A stretch of DNA of 64,000 nt from an uncultured Planctomycetales bacterium (GCA_964359575.1 CAYHTV010000001.1:5547-69546); one strand, 5' to 3'; shown: positions 20,550 to 61,359, numbered from the stretch's first letter. The notes: generated from the letters alone by a model not told the origin. Made by a program: numbers and translations.

Positions 20550-20682
20550 AGGAAAGCCATACAGCAAAGAAGTTACGACGCACTTACTTTTCTAAAAATT
20601 ATTAGAGGAAGTAAGTGCTGTACTGATTTCCTCTAAAATATTTAAGGGAAAATCAGTACGAACGAAGTGAGGAGTTTTCTTG
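20550..20682 (+). repeat. Structured repeat family 2, copy A (composite: AGGAAAGCCATACAGCAAAGAAG... two inserted hairpins ...GAACGAAGTGAGGAGTTTTCTTG)
   Basis: Shares its 5' module with copy D and the 3' module CGAACGAAGTGAGGAGTTTTCTTG with copies B, C and D; the inserted hairpins have CTAAAA(A)TATT loops. Confidence 0.7.
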
Positions 20683-20734
20683 ATTATGCCACGGCGTATT
20701 CATATATTTGTTAAAGCGCAAATGAAAGGGTCGT

Positions 20735-22345
20735 ATGAAAAAGCAAGTTAAACAATCGAATAAAGCCAGCAGGGACCAAGACTTCAAGCAGGATGTCGAA
20801 AAGCTTGTGACGCTGGGCCAGAAGAAAGGATTCCTGACCTATGAGGATGTGAATACAACCTTATCGGAAGATAATTCCTCGGAGGACATGGACCAAGTTT
20901 TTGACATTCTCGATGGAAATGATATCAAAATCATTGAGTCGGAAGAGGAGCCGGGAGGGGATGCGCTGGAAGATGTAGAATCCCGAGAACAGCAAATCCG
21001 CCGTCTGCGCGAAGCGCAAAATAAAGAAGAAGATGTTTATGCGGATAAGTTCATCCCCCTCGATGACCCTGTCAAGATGTATCTCAAACAGATGGGATCT
21101 ATTCCGCTTTTGTCGCGCGAAGATGAAATCAGCCTCGCTAAGCGCATCGAAGAGACAGAAAATAAATTTGCCGAGGCGCTTTTTAAAACAGCATTCGCAC
21201 GCAAGGAAGCCCTGCGCATCATCAATAGCGTCTTAAAGGAAGAGACTAACGTTGAAGACGTTATCAAAGATGAGTTAGAGCGGCGTCCCAAATTGATCCG
21301 TGATTTAAAAAGAATCATTGAGCGAGTCCGGCACGCGCGGCTGGGGACAGATCAATCCGCCAAGGCCTTAGCCGAATTCAAGCTCACCTCCAACATCAAC
21401 GAAGAAATTGTTGCTAAAATTACCGAGATTATCGATCGTGTGGAGCGGATTGATAGAATATTTAAAGGAAAGCGTAAAGTTGAGAATGTTAAAGAGCTGC
21501 GCAAGGAAAAGGCGAAACTTTTACGCGAGATTGGCGAATCTATCAATAGTGTGAAGGAACAGTTTAAGGGAATTAAAGTCCGCCAAGCCAAATTTAACAA
21601 AGCCAAGAAACTCCTTGTTGAGGCAAACTTAAGATTGGTTGTGAGCATCGCCAAAAAGTATATCAATCGCGGCCTTTCTTTTTTGGATCTTATTCAAGAA
21701 GGGAACATGGGGCTGATCCGCGCGGTGGAGAAATTTGAATATAAACGGGGATATAAATTTTCTACCTATGCCACTTGGTGGATCCGCCAGGCGATCACCC
21801 GTTCCATTGCCGACCAGTCGCGTACGATCCGTATTCCGGTTCACATGACGGAAACGATTAATAAAATTATTCGTGTTTCTCGTCTCTTTGTCCAGGAATA
21901 TGGCCGAGAACCCACCGCTCAAGAAATTGCCAAACAGATGCGCATCCCGATCAGTAAAGTGAAGGAAATTTTAAAGATTTCGCAAGTGCCAATTTCTTTG
22001 CAAACCCCCATCGGGGATGAAGGTGATACGCATTTTGGAGATTTTATTGAGGATCGTAAGGCGGTCTCACCGGCCAATGCGACGGTGCAATCTATGCTGA
22101 AGGAAGAAATATCGTCCGTTTTGTCGACACTTGATGAACGGGAGAGAAAGATTTTGGAATTGCGATTTGGAATTCACGATGGTTCCACCCGCACCTTAGA
22201 GGAAGTTGGCAGTGAGTTTAACGTCACGCGCGAGCGTGTGCGGCAGATCGAATCCAAGGCCTTACGCAAATTGCGCCATCCCACACGTTCTCGACGGATA
22301 AAGGCCTTTCTTGATATGGCATCAAAAGATGAAGGGATTGTCTAA
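20735..22345 (+). CDS. rpoD: RNA polymerase sigma factor RpoD (sigma-70)
   Basis: Region 2 ([37 protein letters not shown]) and region 4 are present; conserved dnaG-rpoD order. Confidence 0.95.
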
Positions 22346-22364
22346 AATAACCGTGTATTAAGTC

Positions 22365-22406
22365 AAAAGCAGCCTGCTCCGCAGCAAGGGGCGGGCTGCT
22401 TTTTTG
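22365..22406 (+). terminator. Rho-independent terminator after rpoD
   Basis: GC-rich hairpin AAAAGCAGCC...GGCTGC followed by TTTTTT. Confidence 0.55.
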
Positions 22407-22416
22407 GAATCAGGGC

Positions 22417-23244
22417 ATGATAAAATTTTGTAAAATTTTAAGATTTTCAATGATTTTATTTGGGATGATCTTAATCTCTCCGGCGTTTGGTGACAATCCA
22501 CCTGTCCTTGACTCCGAGATAAAAGCGATCGCCAATCAAGTCATGCTTAATATTTATGATGAAATCTTAAGAGTTAAAGCTAAGCATCCCGAGCTCGAAC
22601 AGTTTGCCGAACAAACAATGTATGAAAATCAACAAGGGGTTTATGCGATTGTTTATCAACGTCCACAATTGGATGCAAAGATGAAAAGAGAGCCGTATGA
22701 ATTTGCGGTTACGATTGTCCCGATGGATAATCGTATTTTTCAGGAACAAGGCCGGTACGCGTTCAATTTTGCTTTTCCTTTTTTGGACATCAAATTTGCC
22801 GGATATGAAAAAATGACTTATGGCAAAGGGCATTATGATATTTTGAAGGCTATCAATCTCCACGGCGAATTATTGGCCGAGTATCAGCAAAAATTTGTGC
22901 CGTTACAAATGATTTTGAAACCAACGAAAGCCTCCTATAAAGTCAAAGAGCCTATTGAATTCGAAGTAGAGTTGAAAAATGTCACTAACCATCACATGTT
23001 TGTTCATGAGATCAACGAAGCGAGTTTGTATTGTCAGTTTAATAATAAAATTTGGGGCACGCAGCAAAGAGGAAATCTTGGGACAAAAGACCTAGTCGTT
23101 AAATCCAAAGAGTCGGTGCGCCGGACATTTTTGGGAGAAGGGCTCAAAACGCCCGGGCAGCTTAACCTTTCGTGCTCTTATAATATGAGTATTAAAGGGG
23201 TTAAACCTTTTGCCAATCTAAGTGTAAAAGTGGTTAATGAATAG
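22417..23244 (+). CDS. Hypothetical secreted protein
   Basis: N-terminal signal-peptide-like hydrophobic segment; no recognisable motif. Confidence 0.4.
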   Translation: MIKFCKILRFSMILFGMILISPAFGDNPPVLDSEIKAIANQVMLNIYDEILRVKAKHPELEQFAEQTMYENQQGVYAIVYQRPQLDAKMKREPYEFAVTIVPMDNRIFQEQGRYAFNFAFPFLDIKFAGYEKMTYGKGHYDILKAINLHGELLAEYQQKFVPLQMILKPTKASYKVKEPIEFEVELKNVTNHHMFVHEINEASLYCQFNNKIWGTQQRGNLGTKDLVVKSKESVRRTFLGEGLKTPGQLNLSCSYNMSIKGVKPFANLSVKVVNE

Positions 23245-23413
23245 CGTTCGATGAGGCAAAGGTTTGTAACTCATTGATCAATAGTCATTTTTGAACCTCT
23301 TTTTTATTTTCTGGCCTCATTTCCGCGATTAATTCTGTTGAAAAGATATACCGCATATGATATGCTTAAAAATAAATTTTATTCGTAAAAATCGACTGAT
23401 TAGCTATTTATTC

Positions 23414-23487
23414 GGGCCCATAGCTCAGTCGGTCAGAGCAGTTGACTCATAATCAATTGGTCCCTGGTTCGAGTCCAGGTGGGCCCA
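23414..23487 (+). tRNA. tRNA-Met (anticodon CAT; elongator-type, could instead be tRNA-Ile2/lysidine)
   Basis: Cloverleaf with acceptor stem GGGCCCA/TGGGCCC, anticodon loop CTCATAA and TTCGAGT T-loop; G1-C72 pairs, so it is not an initiator; no encoded CCA. Confidence 0.8.
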
Positions 23488-23503
23488 GAGAAAAGTTGTT
23501 TCA

Positions 23504-23580
23504 GGGCGTATAGCTCAGCTGGTTAGAGCGCTGCCCTCACATGGCAGAGGCCGAGGGTTCGAGTCCTTCTATGCCCACCA
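23504..23580 (+). tRNA. tRNA-Val (anticodon CAC)
   Basis: Acceptor stem GGGCGTA/TATGCCC, anticodon stem CTGCC/GGCAG with loop CTCACAT, T-loop TTCGAGT, encoded CCA. Confidence 0.85.
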
Positions 23581-23670
23581 GTCTATTTTCCATGCAAAAA
23601 CGTTAGAAGGATAACAGCGTCTTTTTAAATGCCGCAGATCAAGGCCAATAAATGATAAGGACCATGACAC

Positions 23671-24396
23671 GTGCCACAGGTTTCCATTCGCGATCAAATT
23701 AAGAAGCTCATCGAGCTGCAAAAAATCGATAAAGAAATTTTCGATTACAGAAAGGAATTGGAAGAACGGCCGGCTTTGTTGAGCGAGCTCAAAGAAAAAT
23801 TTGAGAATCAAAAGGCGGCTTTAAAGCAGCTCGAGGAGAAGGTTAAGGCGATCTATTTGGACCGCAAAGCCAAGGAATTGGATCTGAAAACAAAAGAAGA
23901 TGAAATCACGAAAGCCAATTTACAACTTTTCCAAATCAAGACGAACAAAGAATATACTGCCAAGTTAACCGAGATCGAAACGCTTAAGGCCAATAAATCA
24001 ATCTTTGAAGAGAAAATATTGGCTTCGTATGATGAATCCGACGCCATTAATGCTAAAATTGAGAAGGAGAAAGCCTTTCTCGCGGCAGAAGAAAAATTCT
24101 ATTTAGCGCAGAAAAAAGAAATTGAAGATACTGTTAAAATTTTTCAGGATAAGGTCAAAGTTTTACAGAGCCAGCGGAATCAGCAATCTCCGGAGGTTGA
24201 TAAAGAAATTTTGCTGCGGTACGAAAGAATTTTAGAGAAACGAAACGGTATCGCCATTGTTCCGGTGCAGAACGAAGTATGCGGGGGATGTTATATGAAC
24301 GTGACCACCCAATCTGTCAACGAAATCAAGATGCATGAAAAGCTGATGATCTGTGAAATGTGCGCGCGGATTTTATATCTTGAGGATGATCTTTGA
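23671..24396 (+). CDS. Coiled-coil protein with C-terminal C4 zinc ribbon (COG1579-like)
   Basis: Long heptad-rich region, then CGGCY...CEMC zinc-ribbon; overlaps rnhA by 4 nt. Confidence 0.65.
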   Translation: MPQVSIRDQIKKLIELQKIDKEIFDYRKELEERPALLSELKEKFENQKAALKQLEEKVKAIYLDRKAKELDLKTKEDEITKANLQLFQIKTNKEYTAKLTEIETLKANKSIFEEKILASYDESDAINAKIEKEKAFLAAEEKFYLAQKKEIEDTVKIFQDKVKVLQSQRNQQSPEVDKEILLRYERILEKRNGIAIVPVQNEVCGGCYMNVTTQSVNEIKMHEKLMICEMCARILYLEDDL

Positions 24397-24854
24397 TGAA
24401 AGTTTTGGAAATATTTACCGATGGGGCGTGCCGCGGCAATCCGGGGCCGTCAGCCATCGGGGTGGTTATTAAGGAAAACGGCAAGGTTGTTAAAAAGATT
24501 GCACAATCAATAGGGGAAGCCACCAATAATATTGCCGAATACACGGCCTTAGTTTGCGCCCTGAAGGCGGCGGCAGGGCTTAAAGCCCAGCAGTTAAAAA
24601 TTTATACCGATAGTGAACTGCTTTATTATCAGTTGACCGGCACCTATCAGATTAAAAATGAGAATTTGAAATTACTTTTTGCTAAGGCTCAGGAAGCGGG
24701 GAAGAAATTTGAGCATATCCAAATTAAGCGTATTCCCCGTGAGCAAAATCAAGACGCCGATAAGTTGGCGACCCAAGCTATAAAAAAAGAGCAGGCCAAG
24801 GTGGTTGCCTCGGTGTTTTACACCGGGGAGGAAAGTCCGAGCTCCGCAGGATAA
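24393..24854 (+). CDS. rnhA: Ribonuclease HI
   Basis: LEIFTDGACRGNPGPSAIGVV, IAEYTALVCAL and IYTDSELL catalytic motifs of the RNase H fold; the last ~22 codons overlap the rnpB 5' region. Confidence 0.85.
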   Translation: MMKVLEIFTDGACRGNPGPSAIGVVIKENGKVVKKIAQSIGEATNNIAEYTALVCALKAAAGLKAQQLKIYTDSELLYYQLTGTYQIKNENLKLLFAKAQEAGKKFEHIQIKRIPREQNQDADKLATQAIKKEQAKVVASVFYTGEESPSSAG

Positions 24855-25263
24855 TGTATCCCGGTAATGCGGGACGATCCTAGTACTGTGTTTCCGAAAT
24901 TATGTACATAGAGGGACACAGTACTGTACTATGTTCCTCTGAATAAAATTAAAGTAACATAGTACTGGTTTATCGATTGAATAAAATCAATCAGTGGAAA
25001 TCTAGGAACGGATTAGAGCTACAGTGACGATGATCTCGGTGTTTACATCGAGGGAAGTGAAACGAGCAATCTCTACATGGAGCAAGGCCAAATAGGAAGA
25101 GAGCCTTAGCAAAATAATGGGGCACGAATCGATCCGGTTCGTTATTATCTTCGGGTAGGCTGCAAGAGTCAAGAGAGTAATCTCTTAGAGTGAGTGAGAT
25201 AACTACCCCTCATGCCTAAAAACATCATGAGGAACATAACTCGGCTTATTGGTCTGCTCAATT
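24786..25263 (+). ncRNA. rnpB: RNase P RNA (bacterial type A)
   Basis: GGAGGAAAGTCCGAGCTCC (P4 5' strand) at 24826-24844; CCCGGTAATGCGGG; GGAGCAAGGCCAAATAGG at 25079; CGGGTAGGCTGC; ACATAACTCGGCTTATTGG (P4 3' strand) with compensatory change CCGAG/CTCGG relative to E. coli CCGGG/CCCGG; P1 pairing AAGAGCAGGCCAA (24787-24799) with TTGGTCTGCTCAA (25248-25260); about 476 nt including an expansion around 24880-24960. Confidence 0.8.
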
Positions 25264-25266
25264 ATC

Positions 25267-25371
25267 TATGGGCCTTTGTACAACTAAAGAAAAAAATTTG
25301 AATTTATCATTGAGGAGACAAAGGCCAATATTGACTACTTCAATTCTTTTGGTTCTACAAAGGTCAATAAT
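25267..25371 (-). mobile_element. MITE-like repeat family 1, copy 6 (reverse orientation)
   Basis: Lies between the rnpB 3' end and the yebC RBS. Confidence 0.8.
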
Positions 25372-25393
25372 ATAGAAAACAGGAGGAAGTTCG

Positions 25394-26149
25394 ATGTCAG
25401 GTCATTCAAAATGGGCTAAAATTAAGCATAAAAAAGGCGCCACGGATGCTAAAAGAGGAGCGGCCTTTACAAAAATTATACGCGAGGTCACCGCAGCCGC
25501 TAAAGCGGGCGGCGGGGATCCAAATAAAAATCCGCGCCTGCGCACGGCCATTGCCCGTGCCAAGATTATTAATATGCCTGGCTCAAACGTAGAGAACGCG
25601 ATTAAAAAGGGTACCGGAGAACTGCCAGGGGTGGTTTATGAAACGGTTGTCTTTGACGCTTATGGCCCGGGCGGCGTGGCACTTCTTATTGAAGGATTAA
25701 CCGATAACAAGAACCGCACCACCGCAGAAGTGCGTAACATTCTTGCTAAGAAAAATGGGAGTTTGGCCGGCGCTGGGAGCACCGCCTGGATGTTCACAAA
25801 GAAAGGCTTTTTGTCTATCGAGAAAAATAAAATTGGCGAAGAGGAGCTTATGAATATTGTCCTGGATGCAGGCGCTGATGATATTAAATCGGAGGGGAGT
25901 TATTATGAAATCACCTGTGACCCTTCGGTTTTCGAATCCGTCAAGGCAGTCGTGGAAGCAAAAAAAATCATGCCCGACACTGCGGAAATTACGATGATTC
26001 CAAACTCAACAGTGAAAGTTCAAGGCGAAGATGCTAAAAATATTTTAACCCTTTTGGAATTTTTGGAGGATCATGAGGATGTGCAGGCGGTTCATGCGAA
26101 TTTTGATATTTCTGAGGAAGATTTAGAAAAAGTCGCTGGCTCATCATGA
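25394..26149 (+). CDS. yebC: YebC/PmpR family DNA-binding transcriptional regulator
   Basis: MSGHSKWAKIKHKKGATDAKRGAAFTKIIREV is the YebC family signature; 251 aa. Confidence 0.95.
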   Translation: MSGHSKWAKIKHKKGATDAKRGAAFTKIIREVTAAAKAGGGDPNKNPRLRTAIARAKIINMPGSNVENAIKKGTGELPGVVYETVVFDAYGPGGVALLIEGLTDNKNRTTAEVRNILAKKNGSLAGAGSTAWMFTKKGFLSIEKNKIGEEELMNIVLDAGADDIKSEGSYYEITCDPSVFESVKAVVEAKKIMPDTAEITMIPNSTVKVQGEDAKNILTLLEFLEDHEDVQAVHANFDISEEDLEKVAGSS

Positions 26150-28153: not shown

Positions 28154-28155
28154 AT

Positions 28156-29211: not shown

Positions 29212-29215
29212 TTTT

Positions 29216-32919: not shown

Positions 32920-33003
32920 ATCATCAGCCGTCAGCCTTCAGTCATCAGCCAAGTGCTTTTAGCTGAAGACTGAAGACTGAAAACTGATAGCCGAAAGTTA
33001 AAC

Positions 33004-49135: not shown

Positions 49136-49140
49136 TATTT

Positions 49141-50739
49141 TTGCCAAGACTATGCTCGCGAGGGTCTATGAAAAAATTTTTAATCATTATGTTAGGACTG
49201 GCAGCGATGATTCCATTCGGTTTTGCAAATTCAGAAATTAAAGAACCCAATGTCAGCGGGAAATTTTATGATGCCGACCCCAAGCGTCTGGCTGCTGCGG
49301 TTGATACTTTTATTAACCGCGCCGAGGTTGCGGACTTGGATAAAAATATCGCGATGATTATTGCTCCGCACGCTGGGTATATTTATTCCGGCGCGGTTGC
49401 GGGATACAGTTTTAAGGCAGCGCGCCGCGGGCAATATAAGACGATCGTTATTATCGCGCCGAGTCATTTTTATGGATTTGACGGAATTTCGATTTGGCCG
49501 GAAGGAGGGTTTCAAACACCGCTGGGAATCGCGCCGGTCGATCACGATTTTACGCAGAAGCTCATCGGCCGTAATGAAAAATTTTATTTTGACGCCTTGG
49601 CGTTTGAGCAAGAGCATGCGCTGGAGGTCGAAATCCCATTTTTGCAAAGAACCTTCAGTGATTTTAAGATTGTGCCGGTCGTGATGGGACAGCCGACATT
49701 TCAGACATGCGAGGCCTTTGCCGCGGCGTTAAAAGAAAACATTGGCGAGCGAGATGATGTCTTGGTTGTGGTCAGCACAGATTTGTCGCATTATCACGAT
49801 GATACCTTTGCCCGCGCAATGGATCAGCGGACGTTAGCCATGGTCAAGGCAGGCGACGCGAAGGAATTGTGGAAACAGTGCCGCCTGGGAACAATGGAGA
49901 TGTGCGGCTTTGTGCCGGTCACCACGGCATTATTGTACGCCAAGCTGCAAGGTTTGCGGGATGTGGAAATCGCGCGTTATGCCAATTCTGGGGATGTGAC
50001 CGGTGATCGGCACAGCGTGGTGGGGTATGCGTCGGTTATTTTTTACAGCATAGGAAAGTATAAAACTTTCCTAGCTGCTAAAAACTCCTTTCCTATGCAG
50101 CAAAGAAGATGCGACGAACGAAGTGAGGAGTTTTCTTGTGCGCCGGCCGCTGGAGACCAAGAGGGGCTGCTCAGTCTGGAACAAAAGAAAAAATTATTAT
50201 CGATCGCGCGTAAATCCATTGAAAACCACGTGCGCACTGGCACAAAATTGGGGATAGAGGAATCTGATCCTCGTCTTTTCAAAGAGGAAGGGGCTTTTGT
50301 GACGATTCATCGGCAGGGACGATTGCGTGGGTGCATCGGGAATATTATTGGGCAGGGTCCATTGTATCTTACTGTGCGCGACATGGCGATTACCGCGGCT
50401 TCGCGTGATCCGCGATTTCAACCCGTGAGCGAGGAAGAATTGAAAGATATTACGGTCGAGGTCTCGGTTCTCTCGGAGCCCAAACCCGTCAAGGACATGG
50501 ACGAAATTGTCATGGGTGTGCATGGCGTTATTGTGAGCCGAGGAGCGCATCATGGAGTTTTTTTGCCGCAGGTAGCGACCGAAACCGGCTGGAGCCAAGA
50601 AGAGTTCCTCGCACAGCTGTGTGAACAAAAAGCCGGCCTGCCGCGGGACTGCTGGAAAGACCATCAAACGCGTTTAGAAATTTTCACCGCCCAAGTTTTT
50701 GCCGAGAAAGATATAAATTATGGGCCTTTGTACAACTAA
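49141..50739 (+). CDS. Memo-like (AmmeMemoRadiSam system protein B) fused in frame to an AMMECR1 domain (protein A); real start probably the ATG at 49168
   Basis: N-terminal half has IIAPHAGYIYSG...APSHFY...DLSHYHDD (MEMO1/extradiol-dioxygenase-like); C-terminal half has GAFVTIHRQGRLRGCIG...HGVIVSRGAHHGVFLPQV (AMMECR1); the 94-bp repeat family 2 copy B is translated in frame between them; the stop codon lies inside MITE copy 7. Confidence 0.7.
   Translation: MPRLCSRGSMKKFLIIMLGLAAMIPFGFANSEIKEPNVSGKFYDADPKRLAAAVDTFINRAEVADLDKNIAMIIAPHAGYIYSGAVAGYSFKAARRGQYKTIVIIAPSHFYGFDGISIWPEGGFQTPLGIAPVDHDFTQKLIGRNEKFYFDALAFEQEHALEVEIPFLQRTFSDFKIVPVVMGQPTFQTCEAFAAALKENIGERDDVLVVVSTDLSHYHDDTFARAMDQRTLAMVKAGDAKELWKQCRLGTMEMCGFVPVTTALLYAKLQGLRDVEIARYANSGDVTGDRHSVVGYASVIFYSIGKYKTFLAAKNSFPMQQRRCDERSEEFSCAPAAGDQEGLLSLEQKKKLLSIARKSIENHVRTGTKLGIEESDPRLFKEEGAFVTIHRQGRLRGCIGNIIGQGPLYLTVRDMAITAASRDPRFQPVSEEELKDITVEVSVLSEPKPVKDMDEIVMGVHGVIVSRGAHHGVFLPQVATETGWSQEEFLAQLCEQKAGLPRDCWKDHQTRLEIFTAQVFAEKDINYGPLYN
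50045..50138 (+). repeat. Structured repeat family 2, copy B (inside CDS, in frame)
   Basis: ACAGCATAGGAAAGTATAAAACTTTCCTAGCTGCTAAAAACTCC...CGAACGAAGTGAGGAGTTTTCTTG; translated as SIGKYKTFLAAKNSFPMQQRRCDERSEEFS; contains an internal ATG and a GAGGAG-7nt-GTG arrangement. Confidence 0.75.
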
Positions 50740-50823
50740 AGAAAAAAATTTGAATTTATCATTGAGGAGACAAAGGCCAATATTGACTACCTCAATTCTT
50801 TTGGTTCTACAAAGGTCAATAAA
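50719..50823 (-). mobile_element. MITE-like repeat family 1, copy 7 (reverse orientation)
   Basis: Its first 21 nt encode the last 6 codons and the stop (YGPLYN*) of the Memo-AMMECR1 ORF. Confidence 0.8.
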
Positions 50824-50853
50824 ATCAAAAATTGAAATTTAAAAATCAAAATT

Positions 50854-51324
50854 TTGAAACGCGATACCATTATCTCTATCTTTGTTGTCCTCTGGCTTTT
50901 GGTTTTTAACTATGAGTCTATTCACCGTTATTATTTGGAGCCGTGGCTGAAGCGCCCGCTGCCAAAACTGAAGCTGCTTTTTCCGCCAGTGGGCTGGATT
51001 ATGTTTTATGATGTGGGTGATGAATACAGTTGCGCGGAGATTTATGGTGTCAACGCGGACGGGATTCAGCAAATCGATCCGCATGAAATTTTAGCCACCA
51101 GGACATTTGGGTTTGATAATATTCACCGCAATGTTCTTTCCATCGTTTTTGCCGACAGTATGCAGTCGCCCGTGTGCCGTTTCTTGGAGCACAAGTTCCC
51201 GGAATTTGAGAATTTTTTGATTACCGCGGTTCATTATCCCTCGGTGACCCAAACGCCGCATAAACGATTGCAGCGGGTGATGTATCAGTGTCAAGATAAG
51301 GAAGAAGTAAAAACTAAAAACTAA
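50854..51324 (+). CDS. Hypothetical protein upstream of the HTTM gene
   Basis: N-terminal TM helix; no motif. Confidence 0.35.
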   Translation: MKRDTIISIFVVLWLLVFNYESIHRYYLEPWLKRPLPKLKLLFPPVGWIMFYDVGDEYSCAEIYGVNADGIQQIDPHEILATRTFGFDNIHRNVLSIVFADSMQSPVCRFLEHKFPEFENFLITAVHYPSVTQTPHKRLQRVMYQCQDKEEVKTKN

Positions 51325-51393
51325 AAAGTCAAAAGTAAGACAGATCGCGAAGCGATGCCACAGTTTTTAGTTTTAATTTTTGAGTTTTAACTT

Positions 51394-52686
51394 ATGCGAT
51401 ATATTTCAAAAATCTGGCATCGTTTATTCCTCATTGAGCGCCCCTCGCTCAGCTTATCCTTGTTTCGCGTCGCTGTGGCAATCACGGTTGGCGCGCATGT
51501 CATTCCAACACTGTTTAATCTGCCGGACAACTATTATTCGACGGCCCTCAAAACGTATAATTTTGATTTTTTTACTCCGCGGATGATTGAATGCGTCCAG
51601 CGCAGCCCGGATCAGGTGGTTTTGTTTTTTGTTATCTTCTTTTATGTTACCTGGCTCTTCTTTTTCATTGGCCTTTTTAGCCAGATCAGCTGCATTTTCA
51701 TGACCTTGGCATGTTATTATTTTTATGCGCTCAACTCCCTGCATGTGGGTACACTTTCGTGGGATATCCTGCTGGTGACGCTTTTTTTAATGTGCTTAAC
51801 GCCGTATCACGGCGATTATTTCTCGGTTGATGCCCTGAGGAGGGGAGACCCGGAAAGTTATAAAAGGAAACGGCCGTTTTTTATCCAGCGTCTTTTACAA
51901 ATCCAAATTGCCCTGACATTTTTTTATACTGCGCTTTATAAAATCACAGGCGCCGGCAATTGGCTTAAGGATAATCCCATCCATTATTTGATGAATTATC
52001 CGCCAGCCGGCGTGACCAAATGGTTTCTGTTGCGGGATTTCTTTAGGGATAAGCCGGAGTTGTGTTATGCGACAGGTCTTTTGATTGTGGCGATTGAAAT
52101 CTCCATGCCGGTTTTGCTGTTTCTTAGGCGAGCACGATTATCAGCGATTTACTTAGGGTGCTTTTTCCATCTCACTTTAATTCTCACGCTGGATGTGCCG
52201 GCCATATTCTTTTTTCTGTTTCCACCCCAGCTTTTTTTATTTATTAATCCTGATCATATCGTCCGTTGGATTGAGCAAAAACGTTGCGTGAATGCACAAA
52301 CGCCGCAGAGCCAGCTCATCTACGATGGGCATTGCGGATTCTGCCAAAAAAGCGTACAGCAATTGCGCGTGATGGATTTGTTCAACGCGGTTAAAATGGT
52401 GGATTTTCAAAGCCATCCGCATCTGGAGCAATTGCATCCGCAGCTGACTCAAGAGCACTGCGCCAGCCAGCTGCATTTGCGGGAGCCCGATGGAACGTTA
52501 TACGGCGGGTTTGTTGTTTTTAAGCGGTTGTGTTTCGTCATGCCGATGCTGTATCCGCTCATTCTGCTATTTTATTTTCCCGGTGCCGGAATTGTTGGCC
52601 CATGGGTTTACCGCTGGGTTGCAAAAAACCGCTATCTTTTTCATTTTAATAAAATGTGTAAGGGTAATGCCTGTTTTCGTTATTGA
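51394..52686 (+). CDS. HTTM domain (vitamin K gamma-carboxylase-like) membrane protein fused to a DCC-family thiol-disulfide oxidoreductase domain
   Basis: N-terminal multi-TM HTTM-like region; C-terminal LIYDGHCGFCQKSVQ (CxxC of the DCC/DUF393 family). Confidence 0.7.
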   Translation: MRYISKIWHRLFLIERPSLSLSLFRVAVAITVGAHVIPTLFNLPDNYYSTALKTYNFDFFTPRMIECVQRSPDQVVLFFVIFFYVTWLFFFIGLFSQISCIFMTLACYYFYALNSLHVGTLSWDILLVTLFLMCLTPYHGDYFSVDALRRGDPESYKRKRPFFIQRLLQIQIALTFFYTALYKITGAGNWLKDNPIHYLMNYPPAGVTKWFLLRDFFRDKPELCYATGLLIVAIEISMPVLLFLRRARLSAIYLGCFFHLTLILTLDVPAIFFFLFPPQLFLFINPDHIVRWIEQKRCVNAQTPQSQLIYDGHCGFCQKSVQQLRVMDLFNAVKMVDFQSHPHLEQLHPQLTQEHCASQLHLREPDGTLYGGFVVFKRLCFVMPMLYPLILLFYFPGAGIVGPWVYRWVAKNRYLFHFNKMCKGNACFRY

Positions 52687-52695
52687 TTTTTTTTT

Positions 52696-52789
52696 ACAGC
52701 ATAGGAAAGTATAAAACTTTCCTAGCTGCTAAAAACTCCTCTCCTATGCAGCAAAGAAGTTACGACGAACGAAGTGAGGAGTTTTCTTG
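52696..52789 (+). repeat. Structured repeat family 2, copy C
   Basis: Near-identical to copy B; intergenic. Confidence 0.75.
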
Positions 52790-52846: not shown

Positions 52847-53314
52847 ATGCAACTTCCAATTATTATGACGATAATATTTTTTTGTTTAAACTCCGCTGCT
52901 TCGGCCGATGAGATATCAGAGAGAACACTGAAAGAATTTGAGCAAGCCTACCGCAGAGAAAAGACGCAGCAGACGGAAAAACAAAAATTGCTTAAAAGTC
53001 AAAAGAATTTTGAGGCACAAAATAAGAAACGGTTCGATGAGCAATACCAACAGCGCATGAAAAAAATGGCGCAAGAACGGCAAGGGCAATTAGGAGAGCG
53101 GTTTAAGGATCGGCAAAAAAATATTCGTCAAGAACGCGCCAAAATTAAGAGAGAAATGACCGAGGCCGTGGACCCGATGTACAAAGAGGCGCTGCAGGCC
53201 TACAAAGCCAAAGATTATTCCAGGGCGCAAGCGATATTCGCTGAAATTGAGCAGCTGTTGCCTGGTTATAAACAAACCCAAGAGTATTTAGCCCGGAGGG
53301 AGTCGCAGAGGTGA
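52847..53314 (+). CDS. Hypothetical secreted coiled-coil protein (K/E/Q-rich)
   Basis: Signal peptide followed by a charged helical sequence. Confidence 0.35.
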   Translation: MQLPIIMTIIFFCLNSAASADEISERTLKEFEQAYRREKTQQTEKQKLLKSQKNFEAQNKKRFDEQYQQRMKKMAQERQGQLGERFKDRQKNIRQERAKIKREMTEAVDPMYKEALQAYKAKDYSRAQAIFAEIEQLLPGYKQTQEYLARRESQR

Positions 53315-53315
53315 A

Positions 53316-53660
53316 ATGATGAGCCGTAAAAATTTTTTAATCATGCTTTTTATTTTGGAATTTTCTGGCGCGGCCTGGGCGGTCCCGCCATCGAAAATTG
53401 AACTGAGCTATGATCCGGAAAAAAAGAATTTGCACATCGAAGTGGACCACGTGACGCGGAAAAACCGCAAGCATTATATCCGCTATATTAATGTTTATCA
53501 AAACGATGCGGAAGTCAAATCCTTTCATTATGTTGTGCAGGAGCAATCGTCCAGCGTCGCGGAGGATTTGTTTTTAGAAGCGAACAAAGCCGACGTGGTC
53601 CGTGTCAAAGCCCAGTGCACGGAATCCGGCCCTAAAGAGGAAGCATTGGTCATTCCTTAG
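53316..53660 (+). CDS. Hypothetical small secreted protein
   Basis: Signal peptide; no motif. Confidence 0.35.
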
Positions 53661-55792: not shown

Positions 55793-55813
55793 AGAACTGC
55801 GTTCTCTAACGGG
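55785..55813 (+). promoter_or_regulatory. Perfect 13-bp stem hairpin overlapping the stop codon of the DUF255 gene, followed by tandem TAACGGGATTGC x2
   Basis: CCCGTTAGAGAAC-TGC-GTTCTCTAACGGG; no T-run follows; possibly a terminator or a protein-binding site. Confidence 0.4.
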
Positions 55814-55842
55814 ATTGCTAACGGGATTGCTGGACTTTGCAA

Positions 55843-55871
55843 TTGACAAAGCCTATGGCCGCTCTTAAAAT
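55843..55871 (+). promoter_or_regulatory. Sigma-70-type promoter upstream of asmA (TTGACA-17 nt-TAAAAT)
   Basis: -35 at 55843-55848 and -10 at 55866-55871. Confidence 0.5.
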
Positions 55872-55907
55872 AACGGGGGTTTGCGAAAAGTATATATAAG
55901 GAAATCC

Positions 55908-57770
55908 ATGAAAAGTCTTAAAATTGCAGTAACGATTATTTTTAGTCTTTTGGCGGTACTCTTGGCGGCCGTGTTCTTTTTTCTCAAGACGGTGGATATC
56001 AATAATTTCAAATCCCAGATCATTGCCCAATTGGAGGCGGCCGTGGGGCGGGACGTATCAATTCAGAACATGGCCTTTTCGCTGTCTTTTCAAAAAGGTA
56101 TTATTTTGAATGTCGAGGGGCTAACGATGGCCAATGATCCTGGGGAAGTTGAAAAGAATTTTCTTGAAGTGGAACGCATTGGCGTGGAAGTGGATTTTAT
56201 GGCGTTGTTGCGCGAACGGAAGATTTCCGTCAAAAGTGTGCAGGTCCATTCCCCTAAGATTGTGATTATTCGCTCAGAGGCAAATGTCTTGAATGTCCAG
56301 ACATTAGGCAATGCGTCTGCGGCTAAAGCAGTAGCAGCCGCGAATAATGTTCCTGTGCCATCTCCTTCACCGGTACCCCTAAGTGACATTTCCACTAAAA
56401 CCATTAACCTCGACACCTTGCCGGCCTTGCTCGTTAAGTCCATGGCCCTGGATAACGGAACTTTGGTTTATATTGATCGAGCTATAAAACCAGAGATGTC
56501 GATTGTTGTTTCAAAGATTGATGTAGAAGTGGCAAATTTTTCGCTTAAGGACAAATTCCATTTTTCTGTGGCAGGCGCGATTTTGGGAAAACAGCAAAAC
56601 GTACATATAGAAGGTCAAGCGCAATTGGATTTAATAAATTCGCAGGCCCGTTTGGAGAGGACAAAAATAGCCGTGGATTTATCGCAGCTGCTGCGCGATG
56701 AGCTCATGCAGATAGGGCCGATGCTGGATAGTCTCGAACTGGTCGGGCAGTGGAGCGGCCTGCTGGAGGCGGATTTAAATCAAATGGTCGCTGGAGCGCA
56801 AGGGATTATGGCGTTGTCTTTGGAAGGTCAGCTTAAAGAGGGAAGGGCGAGCGTCAATGTTTTAGCCAAGCCGTTAGAAAATATTCATGCTGTTTTTAGC
56901 GCGACCGAAGCGGATTTTACAATTAAAGATTATTCGCTCAATATCGGCACGGGGAAAATTTTTGGAGAAGCGAAGTTGAGCGATTATCTTGAAGCGGCGA
57001 ATTCCAGCCTCACCATCAATTTAGAGGACATTAAGATTGAAGAAGTGCATGATGCCGAGACGCTGCCGGTGAAAGCGCAAGGGAATATTTTTGGCCAGTT
57101 TAAAATTCAGGCGCGAGGATTGGATCCAAAAGTATTTTTACAAACCTTGACCGCCGATGGCGCAGCGGAAGTCCGCGAGGGGAAAATTGTTGATATCAAC
57201 GTGTTGAGCTCGGTGTTGGATAAACTTTCCGTTGTGCCGCCTTTGGCCGGTATTAAAGATAAAATTCAGGCGGGCCTGCCGGAGAAGTATCGCGGCGTTT
57301 TAGAGCAAAGGGATACCAATTTCCAAAAAATTCAATGTGCGGTTAATGTGAAAAATGAGACTGCCAGCCTTACCCGCGTCAATATTCAATCTGATGGCTT
57401 TGGAATGGCGGCCAACGGCACGTGTGATTTTAAACAAATTCTGCATCTGGAATCAGCGTTTGCGATAGCGCAGGATCTCTCGGCTGCTATGGGGACGGCA
57501 ATTCCGGAATTGCAGTTGTTATTTGATCAAGCCGGACAAATTTATATTCCCATGACGACCTACGATGGGCCGGCGGCCAAAATGAAGGTCTTCCCGGATC
57601 CGGTTTATTTAGTGAAGCGCGTCATTGCCAATAGGGGACAAGAGGAGCTGCAAAAATTGATCAACAAGGCGTTAGGGACAGAGGAATCGTCCGAAGAACC
57701 TTCTTCCGGCGAAGAGAAACCCTCGGAACAAAAAATCATTAGCGATATCTTACAGTCGATCTTCCAATAA
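55908..57770 (+). CDS. asmA: AsmA family protein
   Basis: The track ORF starts at 55881; the ATG at 55908 is preferred because it follows an RBS and the predicted promoter; N-terminal TM anchor and a long beta-rich periplasmic domain typical of AsmA. Confidence 0.65.
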   Translation: MKSLKIAVTIIFSLLAVLLAAVFFFLKTVDINNFKSQIIAQLEAAVGRDVSIQNMAFSLSFQKGIILNVEGLTMANDPGEVEKNFLEVERIGVEVDFMALLRERKISVKSVQVHSPKIVIIRSEANVLNVQTLGNASAAKAVAAANNVPVPSPSPVPLSDISTKTINLDTLPALLVKSMALDNGTLVYIDRAIKPEMSIVVSKIDVEVANFSLKDKFHFSVAGAILGKQQNVHIEGQAQLDLINSQARLERTKIAVDLSQLLRDELMQIGPMLDSLELVGQWSGLLEADLNQMVAGAQGIMALSLEGQLKEGRASVNVLAKPLENIHAVFSATEADFTIKDYSLNIGTGKIFGEAKLSDYLEAANSSLTINLEDIKIEEVHDAETLPVKAQGNIFGQFKIQARGLDPKVFLQTLTADGAAEVREGKIVDINVLSSVLDKLSVVPPLAGIKDKIQAGLPEKYRGVLEQRDTNFQKIQCAVNVKNETASLTRVNIQSDGFGMAANGTCDFKQILHLESAFAIAQDLSAAMGTAIPELQLLFDQAGQIYIPMTTYDGPAAKMKVFPDPVYLVKRVIANRGQEELQKLINKALGTEESSEEPSSGEEKPSEQKIISDILQSIFQ

Positions 57771-57814
57771 ACCCCGATAGAGAGCGCAGTTTTCTATCGG
57801 GATAAATTCCATCC

Positions 57815-58321
57815 ATGAAGAATTTTAAATTTCGAGGGAAAGTCATTACCGTCACGCGCAAAAGAGCGCGCCTGCCCAACGGTCATGTGAGCGAACTTGA
57901 TTTGGTTGAGCATCCAGGCGCGGTACTGCTCGTGCCCTTTGTCAATGCGCGAGAGATTTTGCTGCTGCGGCAGTACCGGCCGGTGATTGGGAAATACCTT
58001 TATGAATTACCTGCGGGAACTTTAAAGCCTAAGGAAAGCGCCCTCTCCTGCGCTCAGCGTGAATTAGCCGAAGAGACGGGTTACGCGGCTAGGAAAATTT
58101 CGCTGTTGGGAAGGATTTATCCAGTGCCTGGTTATTCGACGGAAATTATTTTTATTTACCAAGCAACACAGCTTATCGAAAAGGCGCTTCCCAAAGAACC
58201 GGATGAAGTGATTGCGGTGCATCGTTTTGGGAAAGCGCGGGTTGTCGAAATGTTTAAACGCGGCCAGATCAGCGATGCCAAGACGATTTGCGCGCTTGCC
58301 TTCTGCGGCTGGCTCAATTGA
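57815..58321 (+). CDS. NUDIX hydrolase (ADP-ribose pyrophosphatase-like)
   Basis: Nudix box GTLKPKESALSCAQRELAEETGY. Confidence 0.85.
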   Translation: MKNFKFRGKVITVTRKRARLPNGHVSELDLVEHPGAVLLVPFVNAREILLLRQYRPVIGKYLYELPAGTLKPKESALSCAQRELAEETGYAARKISLLGRIYPVPGYSTEIIFIYQATQLIEKALPKEPDEVIAVHRFGKARVVEMFKRGQISDAKTICALAFCGWLN

Positions 58322-58332
58322 GGAAAATTCAA

Positions 58333-58836
58333 ATGAAAGAACCGTATCTGTGTATCGCCAACGATGTGAAGCTGGGAAAGAATGTGAAGCTTTCCAAATT
58401 TATTAATTTGTACGGCTGCACCATTCAAGACAATACAAAAATAGGCGCTTTCGTGGAAATCCAAAAAGGCGCGGTCATCGGAAAAAATTGCAAAATTTCG
58501 TCGCACACGTTTATTTGCGAGGGCGTTACCATCGGGGAAGGGTCTTTTGTCGGGCATGCGGTGGTATTTATCAATGACAATCATCCGCGCGCAGTCAATC
58601 GTTGGGGAATTTTAGAGAATGAAAAGGAATGGAAACCCCGCTTTGTGAAAACCAAAATCGGAGAGCAGGTTTCGATCGGCAGCAATGTCACAATTTTGGG
58701 AGGGATCATGATTGGCGATGGTGCTGTGGTTGGTGCCGGATGTGTTGTCACAAAGAATATCCCGGCCGGCGAGGTCTGGGTCGGCAATCCCGCGCGCTTT
58801 TTGCGGAAGGTTGAGAAAAAAAATCTGCACATTTAA
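58333..58836 (+). CDS. Hexapeptide-repeat (left-handed beta-helix) acetyltransferase
   Basis: The track ORF starts at 58288, inside the NUDIX gene; trimmed to the ATG at 58333 after a GAGGAAA RBS; repeated [LIV]G-x4 hexapeptides (IGKNCKI, IGEGSFVG, IGDGAVVGAG). Confidence 0.8.
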   Translation: MKEPYLCIANDVKLGKNVKLSKFINLYGCTIQDNTKIGAFVEIQKGAVIGKNCKISSHTFICEGVTIGEGSFVGHAVVFINDNHPRAVNRWGILENEKEWKPRFVKTKIGEQVSIGSNVTILGGIMIGDGAVVGAGCVVTKNIPAGEVWVGNPARFLRKVEKKNLHI

Positions 58837-58978
58837 AATCTCCTTGTCATTTTGCCAGGGTGGGCGTATACTTGTTTTCCAGATGATGGCCACCATGTCA
58901 GAAATCAATTTGCCACCCAGGGGCCTTCAGACATAAAATTTATCAGAAATACACATTTGAAAAAGGAGTAATGAAGAA

Positions 58979-60028
58979 ATGAGCTGGGATGCACAAAGTA
59001 CTGTCACTGAAATGCGCCGTGGTTTAAGAATTAAAGAGAGTTTGCCAGTCAGATGGTCCACTCCCGAAGGTGAAACAGGCGAGGGAAAAATATTAAATAT
59101 TAGCACCTCGGGCCTGCTCTTAGATACCAATAAAGATTTTTCTCCGGTCGAGCAGGCCAGATTTTCTTTAGAATCACTGGGACTTAGCAATGGCCATTTC
59201 CTTCCTCAAGAGGGGCGCCTCGTTTGGTCCAAGAGCCAAGGAGCACGCAATAATCGTTTGTGTGGAATTGAGTTTGTCCAGCCGGAAGAGAAGGTCGTCT
59301 CTCACTTGCGCGAAAGAGTGCAAAACGGAATTACCAAAGCCGCCAATACCCGCCGCGTTCACAGCATTATCGGAACCATCCTGTTTATCATCATGACTGG
59401 CTTAACAATTTTTTCTCTCTATCAGTACAATAAAAATTATCGTAATATTGACCAAACCAATCAGGCATTAACCAGCGCGTACGAACAGCAAGCGGCTTTG
59501 TCAAAATATTATGCGGATGAAGTGGCATCCACCAAAATTTTATTGGCCCAAGCGGAAAAAGATTTGGAAGAAGCCAAACAGGACAATGACCAGCTTAAGA
59601 ACTTAGTCAGCGCGCGCGATAATGAAATTACTCAAAATAAAATTGTGATTGAGCAGCTTAAGAACTTAGTCAGCGCGCGCGATAATGAAATTACTCAAAA
59701 TAAAATTGTGATTGAACAGCTTAACACGGAAATTCAGACGATTAAGGAACGGCTGCGTATTTTAGAAGGTGATGTGGTGAATCTCGATGAAGGCCGCTCA
59801 ACGGTGGCCCTTTATAAGCAAAAGGTTCATAAAGTTAAAGGAAAAATTCATGAATTTAAGGAGCAGGCCCACGCCGCCAGAGTCGCCGCTCAAAAAGAGC
59901 GAGACCGCATAGCAGTCGCCTTAGGCAATAACGGTTATCTTATTAAAGGTGGAAAACCTTTTAACCCCAATTATTCCGCGGTTAAATCTCCCCAAAATAT
60001 CGAAATTAACGTTGAGTTTGTAAAGTAA
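58979..60028 (+). CDS. PilZ domain protein with TM segment and coiled-coil containing a 21-codon tandem duplication
   Basis: PilZ motifs RRGLR...NISTSGLLL; TM helix; 63-bp near-perfect tandem repeat at 59591-59716. Confidence 0.65.
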   Translation: MSWDAQSTVTEMRRGLRIKESLPVRWSTPEGETGEGKILNISTSGLLLDTNKDFSPVEQARFSLESLGLSNGHFLPQEGRLVWSKSQGARNNRLCGIEFVQPEEKVVSHLRERVQNGITKAANTRRVHSIIGTILFIIMTGLTIFSLYQYNKNYRNIDQTNQALTSAYEQQAALSKYYADEVASTKILLAQAEKDLEEAKQDNDQLKNLVSARDNEITQNKIVIEQLKNLVSARDNEITQNKIVIEQLNTEIQTIKERLRILEGDVVNLDEGRSTVALYKQKVHKVKGKIHEFKEQAHAARVAAQKERDRIAVALGNNGYLIKGGKPFNPNYSAVKSPQNIEINVEFVK

Positions 60029-60150
60029 TTGAAGATTTATTTCCTCGTTTGAAAAAGGCAGATGGAAACAGTTGCCTTTTTTATTTCTATAAATATAATA
60101 AGCACGTGCCTTTATTTGAAGAATCCCGCCAGTTATTTTCCGTTTCGGGT

Positions 60151-60861
60151 ATGGCCATTCCATATACGCTGAGGCATTCGTCTAAGCGTCAAAGTCTAGC
60201 AATCAGAATTGAAGAGGATGGCGGGGTGCGCGTTTTGGCGCCGGCACGGTTGGATGAACCGGTGATTGAGCGTTTTCTGCAGCAAAAACATAATTGGATT
60301 CATAAAAAAGTTGGCCAGGCGAAAGCGCGTTTTCAATATCTTAGCCAGCGTGCTTTTAGCGATGGACAAGAGTTTCCGTTTTTGGGGCGAAAATTTAGAA
60401 TTACAATTGATAGAGCCAATATCGCGCGAGTTCAAGTGATTTTTGACGGCAGTCAATGGCTGATTCGCCTGCCGGAAGTTGAATCAGGCGAGCCGCACCG
60501 CACGCACATCCGGCCCAAAATGATTCAATGGTATCAGCAGCAGGCCAAAGAGATCATTGGCGGGCGCGTTTGGCATTACGCGCGGATTATGAATGTGCAG
60601 CCGCAGACAATTGCCATCCGAAATCAACGAAGGATTTGGGGGAGCTGTGATTACCGTAAAAAAAGTATTCGGTTGAATTGGCAGATTGTGATGACGCCGC
60701 TTTCGGTGATTGATTATGTTGTTGTTCATGAATTGTGCCATTTGGCGGTCCCCAACCATTCGCCGCGTTTCTGGAGAAAAGTCGCGCAGGTCATACCGGA
60801 TTATCTGCATCGGCAAAAATGGTTAAAAGACAATGCGTGGGAGTTGATCCTGCCCTCATGA
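60151..60861 (+). CDS. YgjP-like metal-dependent hydrolase (DUF45/M48-like, HExxH)
   Basis: VVHELCHLAVPNHSPRFW signature; start trimmed from 60049 to the ATG at 60151. Confidence 0.7.
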   Translation: MAIPYTLRHSSKRQSLAIRIEEDGGVRVLAPARLDEPVIERFLQQKHNWIHKKVGQAKARFQYLSQRAFSDGQEFPFLGRKFRITIDRANIARVQVIFDGSQWLIRLPEVESGEPHRTHIRPKMIQWYQQQAKEIIGGRVWHYARIMNVQPQTIAIRNQRRIWGSCDYRKKSIRLNWQIVMTPLSVIDYVVVHELCHLAVPNHSPRFWRKVAQVIPDYLHRQKWLKDNAWELILPS

Positions 60862-60903
60862 ACCTCGAAGTCAAAGTGATCCCGCAAGCCAGAAAGAATT
60901 CCA

Positions 60904-61038
60904 TTATGGGCCTTTGTACAACCATTAGCAATAATTTTAAGAGAACAAAGCGACCTGCCTGATGAGCTCGTCTTATGACGAGCTCATCAGGCAGGAATAT
61001 TGACTACCTTCTGCTTTTAGTTAAGCAAAGGTCAATAA
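60904..61038 (-). mobile_element. MITE-like repeat family 1, copy 8 (diverged, with an inserted 40-bp perfect palindrome)
   Basis: Termini TATGGGCCTTTGTACAAC and AATATTGACTACC...CAAAGGTCAATAA are conserved; the interior carries CCTGCCTGATGAGCTCGTC-TTAT-GACGAGCTCATCAGGCAGG. Confidence 0.65.
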
Positions 61039-61188
61039 GAATATCCAGAGGAAATTAGGACTATCCCTATTTCCTCTGACGATATTAAGGAAAATAGGGG
61101 TTGAAATCCCGCAGGAAAACAATTATCATAAATGCCTAAATTAGCCATCAGCTATCGGTCGTCAGCCATCAGTAACCAAAAGTTTTTC

Positions 61189-61359
61189 ACAGCATAGAAA
61201 AGTATAAAACTTTCCTAGTACTAGCTGCTAAAAACTCCTCTCCTATGCAGGCCGACTTTCCTAAAGAATTAGAAGAAGTCGGCACAGTAATGGCTTCCTC
61301 TAAAATTTTAGGAAAGCCATACAGCAAAGAAGGTACGAACGAAGTGAGGAGTTTTCTTG
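61189..61359 (+). repeat. Structured repeat family 2, copy D (composite with inserted hairpins)
   Basis: 5' module ACAGCATAGAAAAGTATAAAACTTTCCT...CCTATGCAG, then two hairpins (GCCGACTT...AAGTCGGC; ATGGCTTCCT...AGGAAAGCCAT), then CAAAGAAGGTACGAACGAAGTGAGGAGTTTTCTTG. Confidence 0.7.

Follow-up and report, generated by a model that had tools for sequence, protein, structure and literature searches.

Insertion sequences of the IS200/IS605 family lack terminal inverted repeats, do not duplicate their target, and insert with the left end beside a specific tetra- or pentanucleotide. The hairpins at their ends are indispensable, cleavage or target sites are recognised through pairing with a guide located at the foot of the hairpin, the tnpA transposase is an HUH enzyme of the Y1 type, and insertion is biased in orientation towards the lagging-strand template (PMC7290912). 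Here we describe a small repeat element present as four copies (A to D) in a window of 64,000 nucleotides (nt), the whole stretch of DNA analysed (CAYHTV010000001.1:5547-69546). The window copies belong to an Omnitrophota population from Hainich groundwater. We interpret the four loci as insertions of a small, non-autonomous Omnitrophota mobile element that moved as a folded single strand, for which we propose an HUH-type enzyme, and assign this interpretation a probability of about 0.6. The insertions are precise, cause no duplication, lie 3' of the motif TTTTTYA in an orientation fixed relative to it, and have helices that engage the element ends. Rather than a regulatory leader, the copies are best seen as a new family of mobile elements that are structured and non-autonomous. 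In behaviour the family is like several known kinds, namely the IS200/IS605 derivatives in its insertion, the Rickettsia palindromic elements (RPEs) in its in-frame copies, and REP/BIME and BOX in its modular build, but it is not demonstrably a member of any of them.

The window copies share a 24-nt 3' module, CGAACGAAGTGAGGAGTTTTCTTG, which occurs exactly at 20659, 50115, 52766 and 61336, each time on the + strand, and in none of 100 dinucleotide-preserving shuffles. A 44-nt 5' module occurs without mismatch at 50045 and 52696 (copies B and C); the version in copy D (61189) differs from it by one substitution and by 6 inserted nt. The alternative module AGGAAAGCCATACAGCAAAGAAG is exact at 20550 (copy A) and 61310 (copy D). 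The shared modules had been pointed out in a sequence-only reading of the window, and they stand, as do the additional hairpins that it noticed in copies A (20580-20659) and D (61251-61324). That reading also took the copies for differing combinations of modules. The modular build is real, the modules being a 93-nt core, CAGCATAGG...GAGGAGTTTTCTTG, which is the minimal unit, and nested hairpin pairs. Copies B and C are 93-nt units and are 96% alike, and copy D is such a unit with two additional hairpins placed after CCTATGCAG. Copy A, however, is not a distinct combination: it has the distal portion only, with two other hairpins ahead of the 3' module, and is a 5'-truncated or 5'-degraded copy.

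The family extends beyond the window. A 20-mer from the 3' module recurs exactly at 10 loci of four further Omnitrophota genome assemblies and at about 15 genuine metagenome loci; eight further metagenome matches and one Lachnospiraceae match were discarded as chance, the remainder of the element being absent. In an alignment of 14 short copies, conservation begins at CAGCATAGG and stops after TTTTCTTG (CAGC to CTTG) with sharp edges, and the distal 55 nt or so are invariant across genomes whose orthologous proteins share only 55-80% identity. A scan of 227 kb of collected sequence with the core model yielded no additional copies. Replicate assemblies made from this population agree fully at the copies, with no presence/absence polymorphism at copies B, C and D. 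Several metagenome contigs (L006, L018 and L046) start inside the element; the repeat thus breaks the assembly of these genomes.

Evidence for insertion comes from copies within open reading frames (ORFs). The earlier placement of copy B within the ORF of a Memo-AMMECR1 fusion protein is confirmed, and the copy is in frame. The fusion is ancestral in Omnitrophota. Alignment of the window protein with 13 homologues reveals 31 extra residues, SIGKYKTFLAAKNSFPMQQRRCDERSEEFSC, directly after the conserved VIFY, which none of the homologues has; in Pfam terms, the Memo domain ends at residue 299 and AMMECR1 begins at residue 354. The TTTTTTA that precedes copy B encodes, together with the first base of the element, the conserved I-F-Y. 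Because the extra block follows VIFY in this alignment, copy B is a 31-codon in-frame insertion in the linker, and the upstream TTTTTTA is host coding sequence.

An O-antigen ligase gene (locus L009) holds a 93-nt copy in the same frame as copy B, and in orthologues with 81-83% identical proteins exactly those 31 residues are missing. The filled site, GTG TTT TAC + 93 nt + GGG CTC, can be compared with the empty sites CTG TTT TAC/GGG CTT (L037) and GTG TTT TGC/GGG CTT (L038), where the slash marks the point of insertion. A target duplication is absent, and the T-run is already there in the empty site. Neither of the termini, CAGCATAGG and GGAGTTTTCTTG, is an inverted copy of the other, so that terminal inverted repeats are absent as well. 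The ends and the empty site refute the view that the element is a classical miniature inverted-repeat transposable element (MITE), i.e. a deletion derivative of an insertion sequence with DDE transposase that moves by cut-and-paste via terminal inverted repeats, and we give this view practically no credence. The element does resemble a MITE in being small, multicopy, AT-rich and partly palindromic, and a true MITE family with terminal inverted repeats shares the window, but the inverted repeats of the element are internal and co-vary as helices. The earlier suggestion of a second MITE that carries a ribosome-binding site is thus upheld by the empty site for mobility and lack of autonomy, but not for the classical MITE character.

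The element has just one open sense frame. With the 31-residue peptide as query, an exhaustive phmmer search picked up copies in the O-antigen ligase, in a membrane/TPR protein, in an NYN_YacP protein (two) and in a Tex_N-TPR read-through. In the membrane/TPR protein (L040) the peptide again follows IFY. The two in-frame copies of the NYN_YacP protein (L041:88-780, P0241) lie within its domain. At L043:2130-3542 (P0248), an ORF fuses an N-terminal Tex fragment to a TPR protein across a long-form element, which may be an element-mediated rearrangement or a read-through of gene calling. Peptide matches in P0245 and P0242 were set aside as unrelated tandem-repeat proteins; the DNA of P0245 (L044) is a GC-rich 162-nt repeat that is dissimilar to the element. 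All four clean, single core copies within ORFs are 93 nt long, whereas intergenic cores range from 88 to 95 nt. The fixed length in ORFs is the expected outcome of selection on translated insertions.

The insertion point is defined on the left side. Among 29 non-redundant copies, the left flank reads TTTTTYA, with T at positions -7 to -3 in 26, 25, 26, 22 and 26 copies, Y at -2 in 27 and A at -1 in 23. The right flank of the same copies is variable, with a mild preference for T at +1 (15/29). Three 5'-truncated copies (A, L026 and L031) likewise follow a T-run with a final A, for which a degraded hairpin half is an alternative explanation in the case of copy A.

TTTTTYA is equally frequent on the two strands of the window (66 versus 73), yet all four copies are on the + strand. 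The co-orientation with transcription that had been stressed earlier is therefore true as a count, but loses most of its evidential weight: the bias within the window is confounded, because nearly every plausible window gene is on the + strand, and the GC skew is positive over all 64 kb. In the wider sample, the element lies on the G-rich, sense strand at about 20 of 23 loci (roughly 85% of copies). At the three opposite loci, it is antisense to both neighbours, and the GC skew is reversed. The orientation bias is thus strong, but not absolute.

The neighbours of the copies are functionally unrelated (rpoD, yqeY, a secreted protein, map, glycosyltransferases, an O-antigen ligase and an NYN nuclease), and the locations include gene 3' ends, positions between co-transcribed genes and the interior of ORFs. 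This distribution bears on the idea, also from the sequence-only reading, that the element is a structured 5'-untranslated region (5'-UTR) or small RNA (sRNA) module. The copies would then be cis-regulatory leaders, perhaps riboswitch-like, or genes of a multicopy sRNA, with a AAAACTCC:GGAGTTTT helix masking a Shine-Dalgarno sequence. The helix is real and co-varies, there are two conserved foldings that exclude each other, and all four window copies are oriented toward a downstream gene. However, the genes downstream of copies A, C and D begin 52, 57 and 40 nt past the element and have purine-rich sites of their own, so that GAGGAG is not their ribosome-binding site. The copies located within ORFs, at the 3' ends of genes or antisense to them, the missing 5' half of copy A, the precise presence/absence polymorphism between orthologues, the lack of an Rfam family and the lack of consistent promoter or terminator signals within the copies all speak against a leader or sRNA. 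The proposal is largely refuted, and we regard it as very improbable. The GGAG is chiefly one strand of a conserved helix. Outside the window, upstream of map (L001) and of a glycosyltransferase gene (L011), the downstream start codon is 0-6 nt past the element, and there the GGAG may have been co-opted as a Shine-Dalgarno sequence. The idea of an N-terminal tag was dropped, since the ATG within the element is out of frame with the downstream genes in L001 and L006.

The conserved structure comprises three helices, for which covariation was drawn from the diverged subfamilies L007r, L040/L043 and L041a. Helix P1 (GCATAGGAA/TTCCTATGC) is 97.5% paired, with both sides changed in 5 of 10 pairs, which none of 500 shuffles matched. 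The 5'-end helix, CAGY:RCTG, has CG replaced by UA in 3 sequences. In the 3'-end helix, AAAAYTCC:GGARTTTT, a change from C to T is paired with a change from G to A in L040 and L041a. This last helix, AAAACTCCTC:GAGGAGTTTT, is predicted by folding and corresponds to the 10-bp pairing of the sequence-only reading, which had proposed a check of covariation across copies; run here, the check shows that the helix said to sequester the Shine-Dalgarno-like sequence is real and co-varies. The stated length applies to copies C and D, and the pairing is kept by the compensatory change in relatives; copy B has 9 bp, and the 5' partner is absent from copy A.

Both ends of the element pair with adjacent halves of a single guide, RCTG-CT-AGAAAAYTCC, which engages the first bases, CAGY, and the last, GGARTTTTCT. 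Taken as its reverse complement, GGAGTTTTCTAGCAGCAT, the guide agrees with the joined ends, GGAGTTTTCTTG followed by CAGCAT, at 17 of 18 positions, and it co-varies with them in L007r. Because both end helices use adjacent halves of one internal segment, the two termini are neighbours in a folded single strand, with the segment serving as a splint. The helix at the right end spans a long range, and the termini are inside helices, not outside them. P1 and the 5'-end helix compete for the same bases and are mutually exclusive; there are thus two alternative conserved foldings. A purine tract, CAAAGAAG, extends P1, imperfectly, into the T-rich flank, and is also complementary to the T-rich 3' end. 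The long form folds with z = -7.75.

A guide that is complementary to the joined 3' and 5' ends, a second purine tract that is complementary to the T-rich flank, and the absence of a target duplication would also fit an RNA intermediate or guided recombination, either by reverse splicing or retrohoming in trans, or by an IS110-like recombinase with a guide for the joined ends and the T-rich target. The recognition of the 5' flank only, together with the mild T preference at +1, recalls IBS1/IBS3 of group II introns. A match to domain V/VI of such an intron (46 bits) is located near one copy, at L010:4159-4230 on the minus strand of an Omnitrophota contig, about 2 kb from the element. Group II introns have a 5' GUGYG, a domain V and a 3' AY and measure several hundred nt, whereas the element runs from CAGC to CTTG, is at 93 nt much too short for a self-splicing intron, and has no Intron_gpII match in Rfam at its copies, nor one to group I introns or small ribozymes. 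Moreover, the in-ORF copies are open and have lengths that are multiples of three, which argues for translation rather than splicing, and no reverse transcriptase or IS110 gene was seen beside any copy. An RNA-based or IS110-like route therefore appears doubtful, with a small probability.

The element could also have a role at the RNA level in operon transcripts, similar to REP/BIME or BOX, by buffering mRNA decay, providing processing sites or tuning translation. Such a role would explain the sense bias and the extreme sequence conservation. It would agree with the copies at gene ends and between co-transcribed genes, with helices kept by covariation, with the tolerance of RNase P RNA for the same hairpins (see below), and with the usable distance between the GGAG and the next start codon in L001 and L011. 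On the other hand, the neighbouring genes have no common function, in-ORF copies are translated in frame, three loci are antisense to both neighbours, the element is devoid of a promoter or terminator signal, and the TTTTTYA flank and the pairing of both termini with a guide would be left unexplained. An RNA-level role is unlikely, though it deserves more weight than the other alternatives. It is compatible with a mobile element and does not exclude one, and side effects on RNA, for instance on mRNA stability, are plausible.

With respect to ends, target and size, the element is most similar to the palindrome-associated transposable elements (PATEs), non-autonomous derivatives of the IS200/IS605 family that are moved by the HUH Y1 enzyme TnpA. 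The similarities comprise the absence of terminal inverted repeats and of target duplication, the small size, and insertion 3' of a specific short motif to which always the same end is adjacent. They may extend to the strand bias, to the hairpins at the ends, and to the pairing of the cleavage sites with element-internal sequence. In contrast to IS200/IS605, however, the target has 7 nt (TTTTTYA) instead of 4-5 nt, the termini are within helices and share one contiguous guide of 16-18 nt instead of two separate 4-nt guides, and the left- and right-end hairpins are not copies of each other. The geometry of the guide pairing also departs from that of IS608.

In the movement that we propose, the element would travel as a folded single DNA strand, with one cut behind the T-rich flank and a second behind the T-rich 3' end of the element, TTTTCTTG; the strand would probably be re-joined by a trans-acting HUH-type enzyme in a 'peel and paste' reaction like that of IS200/IS605. 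Movement would favour the strand exposed in lagging-strand synthesis, which would give rise to the orientation bias. Long copies arise when hairpins of about 40 nt nest, usually as pairs, in the single-stranded joints of the core, where short direct repeats (CAG, TAC) permit their loss. Effects on genes are by-products, namely in-frame 31-residue insertions in tolerant loops, and an outward GGAG that is perhaps used downstream.

Several points weigh against this interpretation. No transposase was found among the window minus-strand and other ORFs checked or in the gene tables of the fetched loci (the minus-strand candidates turned out to be GGDEF, transglutaminase-like and unknown proteins). 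Neither tnpA nor an autonomous parent was seen in the window or the fetched loci, nor an autonomous copy with the same ends in the examined sequences. Circle junctions and tandem copies are absent from the collected sequences and the viral contigs. The nucleotide-level empty site is available for one case only, and there the base that follows the element is T and the orthologous base C, which leaves the exact point of cleavage ambiguous by one base. A target of 7 nt and a long guide for both ends, set beside the short targets and guides of studied IS200/IS605 members, also count on this side. Finally, an RNA intermediate or a function as RNA would suit the structure just as well, and the strand bias is not assignable to replication over transcription with the present data.

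Alternatively, movement may be self-guided: the guide would pair with the element's own joined ends, a paralogous purine segment would pair with TTTTTYA, an uncharacterised enzyme (a new HUH lineage or another recombinase) would act on the complex, and the hairpins would be a second mobile layer. We consider this tentative, with a probability somewhat below that of an RNA-level role and slightly above that of an RNA intermediate.

Database searches are consistent with a family that has so far escaped notice: a literature search found no description of Omnitrophota repeats, and Rfam has no family at any copy, either at the gathering score or with E values up to 5. A weak match to a fungal small nucleolar RNA near copy D (61147-61246, minus strand) was dismissed as noise. 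BLAST of the consensus returned just a 28-nt chance match in Bacillus for plasmids, and nothing for phages. Among viral contigs, the 3' module has one chance match in a giant-virus contig, and neither the P1b-linker nor the circle junction is matched.

Nested hairpins of about 40 nt, with a variable GYAC...GTRC basal stem and a conserved top, TTCC-(AT-rich loop)-GGAA, lengthen the element to 251 nt in L004 and to 316 nt in L005. The hairpins form a paralogous family with abundant stem covariation. They are confined to the joints between the core helices, at positions that depend on the lineage (L005, L007r), and are bordered by 3-nt repeats (CAG, TAG, TAC), which explain hairpin loss in copy D, L028 and L010. 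A search with a covariance model of the nested hairpin pair (R1; the model matching the 93-nt core is R2) identified core-free clusters of GYAC...GTRC hairpins at L007:1370-1680 and L029:764-855. In the window, related hairpins occur as a solitary unit and in the RNase P RNA gene (24788-25264, 477 nt), where helix P9 has 134 nt (insert 24876-25009) instead of the 13 in the Rfam model. The expansion consists of three hairpins, two of them of the M4-M5 family. In the cmscan alignment of this RNA, the P12 region (43 model positions) is absent. Because hairpins are present in core-free clusters, as a solitary unit and in RNase P P9, they are a second, REP-like repeat layer separate from the core, and the core-free hairpins suggest independent spread.

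REP/BIME elements, which are associated with RAYT transposases, resemble the nested hairpins: they are imperfect palindromes, measure about 40 nt, keep a 4-nt head, are found single, paired or clustered, and reside in transcribed intergenic DNA. However, the head is GTAG in REP and GYAC/GTAC in the nested hairpins, which argues against membership, and the nested hairpins keep the apical TTCC-AT-rich loop-GGAA while the basal stem varies, and sit inside another repeat and RNase P RNA. The BOX elements of Streptococcus pneumoniae share with the element a modular build, in which the 5' and 3' modules are constant and the internal ones vary in number, as well as stable predicted hairpins, an intergenic location and the lack of an encoded transposase. 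There is no sequence relation, BOX has no defined target motif or such empty sites, and the internal modules of the element are an independent hairpin family.

CTTG, cut after the G, is a nick or target tetranucleotide of IS91 and rolling-circle elements (HUH Y2) and of the pC194/phiX174-type group. The 3' end of the element, ...TCTTG, resembles this motif, and target duplication is lacking in both cases. As in IS91, the 3' end is intact and the 5' end varies, here in 3-4 truncated copies, although the use of the 3' module as the search query may itself have produced this polarity. In IS91, CTTG/GTTC belongs to the target, whereas the empty site of the element is without it.

The RPEs are short palindromic repeats that are found repeatedly in frame in unrelated protein genes, where they encode a conserved peptide (PMC10969869). 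The element is similar in behaviour only, encoding 31 residues, SIGKYK...DERSEEFSC, in at least 5 proteins. It stems from a different phylum, has no evident sequence relation to RPEs, is mostly intergenic, and has a defined target motif and an empty site.

Table 1. Positions of the element copies, their parts and other repeats, counted from the first letter of the window
Feature	Position	Strand	Remark
Copy A, left flank TTTTTTTA	20543..20550	+	target-like T-run with final A
Copy A, 132 nt	20551..20682	+	between dnaG and rpoD; model R1, 80 bits
Copy A, 3' half of hairpin Hb	20551-20564	+	
Copy A, linker CAAAGAAGTTACGAC	20565-20579	+	
Copy A, hairpin pair M4-M5	20580-20659	+	
Copy A, 3' module	20660-20682	+	
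Memo-AMMECR1 fusion gene	49141-50739	+	
Copy B, target TTTTTTA	50039..50045	+	host coding sequence
Copy B, 93-nt core	50046..50138	+	in frame in Memo-AMMECR1 linker; model R2, 107 bits
Copy B, 5' end CAGC	50046-50049	+	
Copy B, internal guide G1	50073-50088	+	
Copy B, P1 3' arm	50089-50100	+	
Copy B, purine linker G2	50101-50115	+	
Copy B, 3' module	50116-50138	+	
Copy C, target T-run TTTTTTTTTA	52687..52696	+	begins 1 nt past stop codon of DCC1-like gene
Copy C, 93-nt core	52697..52789	+	intergenic; ATG at 52847, 57 nt downstream
Copy D, flank TTTTTCA	61183..61189	+	target-like
Copy D, 170 nt	61190..61359	+	core with nested hairpin pair; yqeY 40 nt downstream
Copy D, hairpin Ha	61251-61283	+	
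Copy D, hairpin Hb	61284-61324	+	
Copy D, linker without GAC	61325-61336	+	
Copy D, 3' module	61337-61359	+	
Solitary hairpin CCCTATTTCC-TCTGACGATATTAA-GGAAAATAGGG	61066-61100	+	90 nt upstream of copy D
Hairpin pair akin to M4-M5	24883..24965	+	in helix P9 of RNase P RNA gene; R1, 65 bits
Terminal inverted repeat-type repeat	10893-11017, 18626-18750, 25265-25389, 50717-50841	+	
Terminal inverted repeat-type repeat	9444-9551, 12416-12523, 16373-16480	reverse	
Terminal inverted repeat-type repeat, partial	60891-61041		

Other repeats of the window deserve mention. The MITE family of the sequence-only reading consists of repeats of about 110-125 nt with true terminal inverted repeats (TATGGGCCTTTGTACAAC ... 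GTTCTACAAAGGTCAATA), which occur in both orientations. One copy comes immediately after the RNase P gene, and copy D has another at a distance of 150 nt on its upstream side. The partial repeat upstream of copy D contains a perfect 19-bp hairpin (CCTGCCTGATGAGCTCGTC/GACGAGCTCATCAGGCAGG) at 60954-60995. Runs of the heptamers GACTGAA/CAGCCAT are found immediately upstream of two element copies (L006:6850-6905 and window 61140-61180), and intergenic palindromic heptamer arrays are present at 32922-32988 and 51296-51395, with CATCAGC (x4) against CTGAAGA (x3.6), and TAAAAAC against AGTTTTA. An ORF at 58979-60028 contains 2.2 copies of a 63-nt unit with 97% identity at 59587-59724, which amounts to an in-frame duplication of 21 residues. 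The large ORF after the polysaccharide deacetylase gene (62696-64000 and beyond) encodes 910 or 1081 residues in replicate assemblies (L045:10805-13537 and L046:1413-4658), which points to a protein of variable length that is probably repetitive.

The Omnitrophota are uncultured. The element family follows clear rules: a 7-nt target, no duplication, and three co-varying helices. It is an unusually well-defined tiny element, with both ends held together by an internal guide. The assembly breaks at its copies are relevant for the binning and annotation of these genomes. Proteins of the hosts have been reshaped by recurrent in-frame insertions of 31 residues, in a manner reminiscent of Rickettsia, and the companion hairpins have reshaped P9 of RNase P. 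If the mobilising enzyme can be found, the element would offer a compact, sequence-programmable single-strand insertion system for study. Should the self-guided alternative be true, the element would represent a new transposition architecture rather than an IS200/IS605 variant, in which donor and target are both specified by pairing within a single strand, and which comes with hairpins that are able to colonise structured RNAs such as RNase P.

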